A DNA stretch of 64,000 bases from a virus. Taxonomy: Duplodnaviria > Heunggongvirae > Uroviricota > Caudoviricetes. A model generated the notes under the pieces. That model was not told the DNA's origin. It was given only the letters and a program-made list of their open reading frames with translations, and made no database searches. The stretch lies in IMG/VR virus record IMGVR_UViG_2718218131_000002. One strand, given 5' to 3'. The first letter of the stretch is position 1; each line of letters opens with the position of its first letter. Position numbers and translations under genes: made by a program. This document shows positions 45,430-46,772 of the stretch, in pieces.

Positions 45430-45441
45430 CATGAATATACT

Positions 45442-46513
45442 GCTGAATTTACAATCCAAGTGCAACAAAAAAAGAAGTACTCATCAACTAGAATATAATT
45501 TTGTTTCCACACAAAAACCATTTCCAAATGATGAGTACTTCCTACCGACATCTTACAATAAACGAGCGAGAAAAGATAATGATTTTACTCGCACAGGGCA
45601 AAAAACAAGCAGAAATTGCCAAAGCACTGGGACGTAGCTCCAGCACCATTTCTCGCGAGCTGAAACGACACGCTCTAGAAAGCTACAGTGCAACGAACGC
45701 ACAAAACAGCTATTTGAAGCATCGTCAAAATAGCAAAGCACAGCGCAAATTAGAGCAGCCTGAATATTTCAATTTGGTGCAAGAAAAGTTTCTGACAGAA
45801 AACTGGTCGCCCGAACAAATCAGCGCACGATTAAAATTGGAAAAATCTGAATTATCCATTAGTTATTCAACCATTTATCGTGGTATTTATTCAGGGTTGT
45901 TTGATATAGGCGAACGCAAAGCCAGTCGCAAACTGCGCCACAAAGGCAAAACACGGCATACAAAAAATCATCATGAAAAACGTGGCAAAATTCAGATATC
46001 CAACCATTTGAACGACCGTCCCATTTCGGCGCAAAATCGCAGTCGCTTTGGACATTGGGAAGCCGATACCGTACTGGGTAAAGCGGGTGGAGCTTGTTTG
46101 CTGACGCTGACGGAACGCAAAAGTCGTTTTGAGTTGGTGAAGAAAATTCCTGCCAAAAAAGCCGAAGCAGTCCAAAAAGCCATGATTGAATTGCTGGATT
46201 CACATATATTGCGGTCAATTACGCCAGACCGTGGTAAAGAATTTGCCCAACATCGTTTGGTAACAGAAGCACTGGGTGTAGAATTTTACTTCCCCGAGCC
46301 GCATCAACCGTGGACACGGGGAACGAATGAAAATACAAATGGGTTACTTCGTGAATACTTTCCGAAGCACCAAGACATCAATCAGTGGAGCGAAGTTGAT
46401 ATTCAACAGGTGATCAATAAACTGAATTTACGACCACGTAAATGTTTAGGTTGGAAAACACCTTATGAAGTTTACTTCAAAAAATCGTTGCACTTGGTTT
46501 GACAATTCAAGCT
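45442..46513 (+). mobile_element. IS30-family insertion sequence, about 1.07 kb (ISApl1-like)
   Basis: Imperfect terminal inverted repeats GCTGAATTTACAATCCAAGTGCAAC / GTTGCACTTGGTTTGACAATTCAAGC; about 40% GC transposase gene; transposase stop lies within the right repeat. Confidence 0.7.
45528..46502 (+). CDS. IS30-family DDE transposase
   Basis: N-terminal HTH (LLAQGKKQAEIAKALGRSSSTISRELKRH) and DDE region (GHWEADTVLG...TPDRGKEFA...NTNGLLREY); start uncertain (45528, 45531 or 45576). Confidence 0.8.
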   Translation: MMSTSYRHLTINEREKIMILLAQGKKQAEIAKALGRSSSTISRELKRHALESYSATNAQNSYLKHRQNSKAQRKLEQPEYFNLVQEKFLTENWSPEQISARLKLEKSELSISYSTIYRGIYSGLFDIGERKASRKLRHKGKTRHTKNHHEKRGKIQISNHLNDRPISAQNRSRFGHWEADTVLGKAGGACLLTLTERKSRFELVKKIPAKKAEAVQKAMIELLDSHILRSITPDRGKEFAQHRLVTEALGVEFYFPEPHQPWTRGTNENTNGLLREYFPKHQDINQWSEVDIQQVINKLNLRPRKCLGWKTPYEVYFKKSLHLV

Positions 46514-46523
46514 AAAAAAACTT

Positions 46524-46772
46524 ATGCAGCGTCTGTGTGGTTGCGGAAAGCATGATGGCCGTGAACACGTGCAGTCGCTTACAGCACAGCTGCGACTGGG
46601 ACCGGCAGACATTCTGGAGTCAGATGAGAATGGTATTATCCCGGAGCAGGCCAGGGTAATCACGCAGGTGGTGATACTGGATGCGGATAAAAAGCAGATA
46701 CAGTGCGTGGTAAGACCGCTGCAAATTCTGCGTGCTGACGGGACGTGGGAAAATATTGGCGGGATGAAATAG
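46524..46772 (+). pseudogene. Orphan tail-fibre C-terminal fragment paralogous to the Stf C-terminus
   Basis: 82-aa ORF LRLGPADILESDENGIIP...LQILRADGTWENIGG parallels the Stf C-terminus FRLGPASIIETNSQGWFP...LQVRFGDGPWQDVKG; no tail-fibre assembly gene follows. Confidence 0.35.

Follow-up and report, generated by a model that had tools for sequence, protein, structure and literature searches.

A single complete ISApl1 copy splits a small tail fibre C-terminal domain gene behind an intact stf in a lambdoid prophage

ISApl1, an insertion sequence (IS) of the IS30 family, is known both in Actinobacillus pleuropneumoniae and on plasmids that carry mcr-1. Its published hallmarks are 27-bp inverted repeats that differ at six positions and 2-bp target-site duplications (PMC5404521), and its targets are AT-rich, with the duplicated positions less so (PMC5404521; PMC6349718). 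In the composite transposon Tn6330, two ISApl1 copies surround mcr-1. This report concerns an ISApl1 copy in IMG/VR virus record IMGVR_UViG_2718218131_000002, of which a stretch of 64,000 nucleotides (nt), here called the window, was analysed. The copy lies near the right end of a lambdoid prophage of E. coli, closely behind the side tail fibre gene stf, and it divides a small gene whose 89-amino acid (aa) product has a phage fibre C-terminal domain (Phage_fiber_C or PfC, PF06820) as its only recognized domain.

Both genes at this site have described relatives. EPclA, a collagen-like protein of enterohaemorrhagic Escherichia coli (Ghosh et al. 2012), comprises in order an N-terminal fibre domain, a coiled coil, collagen repeats, and PfC, and the latter has been found experimentally to trimerise and to nucleate the refolding of the collagen helix (PMC3368898). 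The closest described counterpart of the small gene is ORF68 of phage Sp5 (ECs1229-type; orf59 of VT2-Sakai; PHROG 576), which encodes a 92% identical 89-aa PfC-only protein and is immediately preceded by a fibre gene whose product likewise terminates in PfC. A study in which Sp5 genes were deleted systematically lists ORF68 as one of the late genes that are non-essential, detected no frameshift signal by which it would be linked to the fibre gene, and speculates on a role as an "intragenomic reservoir" (PMC5155283). The gene in the window differs from ORF68 in being split at codon 4 and in following a lambda-like Stf of the EPclA type, whereas that of Sp5 follows the fibre gene of a short-tailed phage.

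The element in the window is a canonical ISApl1, and the preliminary description of this DNA, made from the letters alone, was right in naming it as such and in its size. It is 1070 bp long and has a G+C content of 41.6%, as compared with 60.2% in stf and 50.2% in the window. Its boundaries were set by aligning each junction with the corresponding sequence of EC-107 and PK8241, in which the site is free of an IS. All 1070 of the 1070 positions are identical in copies on a Klebsiella pneumoniae plasmid (NZ_CP124876.1) and an E. coli IncI2 plasmid (NZ_CP024142.1), around which the 2-bp duplications are AT and CA. A megablast search with positions 45420–46530, a query that includes a few bases flanking the IS and hence gives 99.4–99.8% rather than 100% identity to annotated ISApl1, matched 449 plasmid records, and at least 99% identity to the window ISApl1 is found in 440 plasmid records. 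The DDE transposase is intact and scores 309 bits on the NCBIfam model transpos_IS30 (NF033563; cut-off 80). The left inverted repeat (IRL) differs from the reverse complement of the right inverted repeat (IRR) at 6 of 27 positions, and a 23-nt core was also detected. Length, inverted repeats, 2-bp duplication, and transposase are those of the plasmid-borne element, and every published hallmark of ISApl1 is present. In IS30 a near-consensus promoter is formed by the joined inverted repeat ends; when the ends of the window element are joined with the 2-bp spacer published for such junctions, TTGACA and TACAAT would stand 17 bp apart, likewise a near-consensus promoter.

In contrast to the ISApl1 copies of plasmids and Tn6330, the window copy is solitary, chromosomal, and located in a prophage, and it does not belong to a composite transposon. 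Its copy number in the window is one; neither blastn nor tblastn of the whole window gave a match to the mcr-1 cassette, the absence of which had been stated earlier, and pap2 is also lacking, so that the Tn6330 arrangement of two ISApl1 copies around mcr-1 does not occur in these 64 kb.

The site of insertion can be reconstructed exactly. The stf gene starts with the ATG at 44116 and ends with the TGA at 45427–45429, and the IS begins 12 bp farther on, at 45442, the spacing that had been reported for the Stf-like open reading frame (ORF). The empty site reads GGAGAATGACATGAATATACTAAAAAAACTTATGCAG in EC-107 and PK8241; the left flank in the window ends with ATGAATATACT and the right flank restarts with CTAAAAAAACTT. 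The target is AT-rich, ATGAATATA[CT]AAAAAAA, and in the longer form of the empty site it is ATGAATATA[CT]AAAAAAACTT. An even closer comparison is offered by assembly GCA_014571555.1, which was located by looking up the exact window Stf protein in public assemblies. Its contig DABSMX010000039.1 carries J, lom, stf, the 89-aa gene, espK, and potB at the same potC/potB site and matches the window with 100% identity along 4326 bp left (41116–45441) and 2990 bp right (46512–49501) of the IS. The two blocks overlap on the contig by exactly 2 bp, CT. Over the 7.3 kb compared, the sole difference between the two prophages is the 1070-bp IS with its 2-bp duplication. The more distant PK8241 is 99.94% identical to the window left of the IS and 100% identical right of it (46512–52920).

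Because the isogenic loci differ by the IS and its target duplication only, the structure is explained by simple transposition, with no IS-mediated deletion, inversion, or cassette capture. We put the probability at roughly 0.93 that a single complete ISApl1 transposed here by its normal mechanism, with stf left intact, nothing rearranged, and the small gene split. ISApl1 entered an AT-rich site 12 bp past the stf stop in a lambdoid prophage lying between potC and potB; the target was codon 4 of the conserved 89-aa gene, with CT duplicated and stf left whole. The coordinates of the features are collected in Table 1.

Table 1. Features at and around the ISApl1 insertion (positions in the window)
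Feature	Positions	Strand	Details
stf, collagen-like side tail fibre gene of EPclA type, intact	44116–45429	+	437 aa; PF08400, PF01391, PF06820
5' stub of the 89-aa PfC-only gene	45431–45441	+	ATG AAT ATA CT; alignment to the EC-107 and PK8241 empty sites
Chimeric 68-aa ORF	45431–45637	+	4 native codons, then IS sequence; translation
Left target-site duplication, CT	45440–45441		2 bp; empty site ATGAATATACTAAAAAAACTT; flank overlap on GCA_014571555.1
ISApl1, complete	45442–46511	+	1070 bp; 1070/1070 match to copies in NZ_CP124876.1 and NZ_CP024142.1
IRL	45442–45468	+	27 bp; TACAAT inside at 45450–45455
ISApl1 transposase gene, intact	45528–46502	+	324 aa; identical to WP_012478345.1; Pfam HTH_38 and rve
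IRR	46485–46511	-	27 bp; TTGACA inside at 46500–46505
Right target-site duplication, CT	46512–46513		2 bp; junction alignment and flank overlap
3' part of the 89-aa gene, codon 4 to stop	46514–46772	+	PF06820; PHROG 576
espO-like small ORF	46886–47161	-	276-nt ORF "secretion protein EspO" in PK8241; PHROG 5398
espK, type III effector gene	47222–48583	-	NCBIfam EspK, 1058 bits; layout as in EC-107 and PK8241

The preliminary description had offered an IS-mediated rearrangement of the tail-fibre locus as one reading. In such an event, recombination or deletion would have removed tfa or brought a foreign fibre cassette next to stf and left an orphan fragment behind. At first sight the absence of tfa and an IS flanked on either side by a paralogous fibre C-terminus invite such a reading, but both copies of the 2-bp duplication are preserved, the empty site can be restored without a gap, the IS-free prophage of GCA_014571555.1 is otherwise 100% identical over 7.3 kb, and hundreds of IS-free genomes have the same tfa-less layout. 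Of 5426 complete E. coli genomes, 696 have the same stf stop followed by the short gene, with no IS, at a median of 11 places per genome; this is the observation that the preliminary description had named as refuting it. A rearrangement is therefore refuted by the comparisons, and we consider it extremely improbable. An IS at the same site occurs in none of the 5426 complete genomes, nor does any of them span the IS junctions of the window, so the insertion appears to be private to the source strain. The 68-aa peptide encoded across the left junction is likewise absent from public assemblies, and the insertion is apparently recent.

The fibre gene itself is an ordinary member of the EPclA type. 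Its product matches PF08400 (E = 6e-69), the Gly-X-Y collagen repeats of PF01391 (E = 3e-18), and PF06820 (E = 2e-35), in the domain order of EPclA and with no notable difference from it, and GCA_014571555.1 encodes an identical 437-aa Stf with the same stop. A 19-nt inverted repeat, complementary at 17 of 19 positions, lies between the coiled coil and the PfC part within stf (44549–44567 and 45330–45348) and is probably due to chance.

As in the stf-tfa pair of lambda, the fibre gene is followed by a small fibre-related gene; the difference is that no Caudo_TAP homologue is present here. The earlier observation that no tfa is visible is borne out, since the Tfa chaperone (Caudo_TAP) domain was found in none of the ORFs tested from stf to potB, and it was absent as well from the IS-free loci of EC-107 and PK8241. 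All ORFs of the 43.4–48.6 kb region are assigned, to lom, stf, the small gene, the transposase gene, the espO-like ORF, and espK. Judged by the IS-free relatives, the absence of tfa is native to this fibre type and not a loss, the second paralogous fibre C-terminus is native to this prophage type, and the IS is the cause of neither. The ability of the EPclA PfC domain to trimerise and to nucleate refolding would explain why fibres of this type lack tfa. In annotation, the missing tfa should accordingly be taken as normal for fibres of this kind.

An ORF of 82 aa does exist behind the IS (46524–46772), as had been described, but the IS lies inside a longer gene and not in front of a separate ORF. 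Joining 45431–45441 to 46514–46772 gives 270 nt, or 89 codons and a stop, encoding a WP_001023445.1-type protein (MNILKKLMQRLCGCG). In IS-free genomes a 270-nt gene is found 1 nt after stf and encodes MNILKKLMQRLCGCGKHDGREH, annotated as a "phage tail fiber C-terminal domain-containing protein" (WP_001023445.1). The corresponding ATG of the window, at 45431, is still separated from the stf stop by 1 nt (TGA-C-ATG, 45427–45433), and its Shine-Dalgarno sequence, AGGAG, lies at 45420–45424 within the 3' end of stf. The IS interrupts the frame after nucleotide 11, in codon 4, and an A7 tract follows at 46514–46520, covering codons 4–7. The 82-aa ORF corresponds to Met8 through the end of the 89-aa gene and should be annotated as a shortened call of it.

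The 82-aa ORF retains the full Phage_fiber_C domain (PF06820, positions 1–64 of 64, E = 8e-35), and the reconstructed protein spans all 89 of the 89 positions of the PHROG 576 profile (E = 2e-59). Residues 28–89 align to the PfC part of Stf with 35% identity over 62 aa (E = 4e-11), so the paralogy with the Stf C-terminus stands but the identity is below the 40% or so given before; nothing in Stf corresponds to the N-terminal 27 residues. The small protein has no match by sequence in the PDB, and an AlphaFold2 model built from a 12-row alignment had a mean predicted local distance difference test score (pLDDT) of 55.9, which was too low for a fold search, and was left unused.

Apart from the window the small gene is well conserved. 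It is present in 296 phage records, among them VT2-Sakai (Sp5, a short-tailed Stx2 phage), BP-4795, and the long-tailed phi330. Members of the protein family occur solely in E. coli, E. albertii, and Citrobacter rodentium. Among 160 IMG/VR loci, the gene is intact in 159 and the junction GGAGAATGACATG occurs in 152. The ratio of nonsynonymous to synonymous polymorphism (pN/pS) in these loci, a sample selected for similar proteins (the best 80 tblastn hits with each of two queries) in which pN is biased downward, is 0.17 for the gene overall, 0.08 for its PfC part, and 0.39 for the N-terminal extension; that of the PfC part of stf is 0.30. Being intact in 159 of 160 loci with a pN/pS of 0.17, the gene is not a decaying remnant, and the overall picture suggests an expressed and constrained protein. 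The proposal that the ORF is the remnant of an alternative receptor-binding cassette is, as it was worded, not supported, given a complete 89-aa ORF in loci without the IS and the constraint on its PfC part.

The exact 82-aa product also occurs in many assemblies, where it arises from A6 or A8 variants of the A7 run, from a 16-nt deletion, or from a contig start inside the gene; in all ten loci read among these assemblies, ISApl1 sequence is absent. The run is A6 in locus L091 and A8 in locus L092, and gene callers choose the 82-aa form in both. Locus L092 is seemingly rich in frameshift errors, and its A8 run may be a sequencing artefact. The 16-nt deletion (AATGACATGAATATAC) in L093 (GCA_020921795.1) and L094 (GCA_022681405.1), just upstream of positions 1471 and 1385, respectively, removes the stf stop together with the ATG of the small gene and fuses the two genes in frame to give a natural tandem PfC-PfC. 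A scan of one genome per species for the small gene returned two short contigs only, from E. albertii and "Xanthomonas pisi," that have no comparison value. The latter, NZ_JPLE01000138.1 (Xanthomonas pisi DSM 18956, 725 bp), holds a 92% identical copy and is most likely a contamination.

The presence of two paralogous PfC copies with 35% identity raises the question of whether the small gene is a silent reservoir, or an alternative receptor-binding cassette, that is swapped into stf by inversion, frameshifting, or recombination, so that the IS would have hit a switch system. Such a role was speculated in print for ORF68 of Sp5 (PMC5155283), and the in-frame fusion by the 16-nt deletion in L093 and L094 and the A7 tract at codons 4–7 would be in keeping with it. 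Against this, the Sp5 authors saw no frameshift signal (PMC5155283), both PfC copies of the window lie in direct orientation on the + strand, no long inverted repeat extends across them except the pair of IS ends, and there are no crossover repeats. A serine-invertase or resolvase domain was found in none of the ORFs tested, and the genes from J to potB are otherwise assigned. The small gene, moreover, keeps a Shine-Dalgarno sequence and an ATG of its own as well as an N-terminal extension of 27 residues that is not related to stf, and the lower pN/pS of its PfC part relative to that of stf is a better fit to an expressed protein. A reservoir is for these reasons improbable, and the locus can be explained without one.

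The invertible fibre segments of Mu, P1, and e14, which are switched by Gin, Cin, and Pin, resemble the locus in having two alternative-looking C-termini, but they differ from the window in their invertase, in the orientation of the copies, and in their crossover repeats. An invertible segment of this type, which the preliminary description had suggested looking for as a switchable fibre, is contradicted by the absence of suitable inverted repeats and by the failure to find an invertase in the ORFs tested.

The insertion leaves stf untouched and separates the small gene from its ATG, from its ribosome-binding site, and from its position 1 nt behind stf. Because it is cut off from all three, we infer that it is most likely inactivated or else weakly expressed from Met8 as a product lacking 7 residues. 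No promoter-like site was found that leads from the right end of the IS toward the 82-aa ORF, and no Shine-Dalgarno sequence precedes Met8. No gene lies downstream of the small gene on the + strand, and therefore the insertion poses no polarity problem. By analogy with Sp5, it is probably neutral for phage and host, since the Sp5 homologue is listed as non-essential and nothing farther along this strand would be affected. In short, a small gene that was already known and is probably dispensable has been hit by an ordinary insertion.

An adaptive insertion, which would act on the host range through loss of the small protein or on the expression of adjacent genes through a hybrid or outward promoter, appears very unlikely. 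There is a promoter-like site at the left junction (45426–45455; ATGACA, 18 nt, and the TACAAT of IRL), matching at 10 of 12 positions, but it could drive the transposase gene only, and the region contains 4 promoter-like sites as compared with 3.3 expected from shuffled sequence, which is no excess. The downstream espO-like ORF and espK are on the opposite strand. In favour of an adaptive insertion, the same small gene has been struck by an IS3-family element in another phage. The present insertion, however, is found in 0 of 5426 complete genomes, with no sign of spread, and the prophage that carries it has a further insertion, of the IS21 family, in its FI-like head gene and is likely to be defective. 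The other phage is Escherichia phage 06-3462, in which IS1203 (IS3 family; 3155–4464 of locus L006) interrupts the 89-aa gene at about codon 52; the case is an independent disruption of the same gene by an IS of another family, at a different position from codon 4 here.

Several points weigh against the favoured reading, in addition to the downward bias of pN in the sample. The strong purifying selection argues for a useful role of the small protein, and "neutral" may be too strong a word. Read-through from the transposase gene, whose stop at 46502 is 21 nt before Met8, could yield some 82-aa product with the whole PfC domain. Dispensability is known from a short-tailed Stx2 phage in the laboratory, and the present prophage is long-tailed, so the analogy may be imperfect. 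Finally, mcr-1 or more ISApl1 copies may lie outside the window.

A rather unlikely but conceivable reading is that the free 89-aa PfC protein would be a selected accessory of collagen-like fibres, either as a tip cap that co-trimerises with the fibre or as a trans-acting chaperone that replaces Tfa. If this were true, the ISApl1 insertion and GCA_014571555.1 would form a natural pair of knock-out and wild type for fibre assembly or host range, relevant to the long-tailed prophages of attaching-and-effacing E. coli.

Under the simple transposition favoured here, the locus adds one more chromosomal landing site of ISApl1 to those recorded and suggests that the strain has met ISApl1-carrying, possibly mcr-1-carrying, DNA. 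It represents a small phage gene disrupted in nature and gives no pointer to a novel mechanism of tail-fibre switching.

The right end of the lambdoid prophage comprises J (39906–43382), lom (43452–44051), stf, the split gene with its IS, the espO-like ORF, and espK, and potB (48946–49809), which is followed by potA, marks its end. In EC-107 and PK8241 the same prophage is located between potC and potB, and its closest relatives are from poultry isolates. A 2.6-kb IS21-family element (istA/istB) occupies 28997–31635 inside the FI-like DNA-packaging gene, and because of this interruption the prophage is probably defective. Poultry-associated plasmids carry ISSso4-like copies with 99.8% identity to the element; PK8241 is without it, and there is an overlap of about 7 bp in PK8241 at the junction. 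An IS3-family element lies just 5' of the terminase genes (20288–21603), where PK8241 has one too. Lambdoid prophages of pathogenic E. coli commonly carry NanS-p-type esterase genes, and such a gene is found 3' of the Q-like antiterminator gene as a 617-aa ORF (14687–16540) with DUF1737, SASA (sialate O-acetylesterase), and DUF6645 domains. A second mobile island (53803–64000) lies directly after roxA and includes genes for a tyrosine integrase (53803–55053), a P4-type primase (57804–59636), a capsid-E-like protein (60720–61847), and a Nu1-like small terminase subunit (62783–63337), a gene set that resembles that of a capsid-forming phage satellite.

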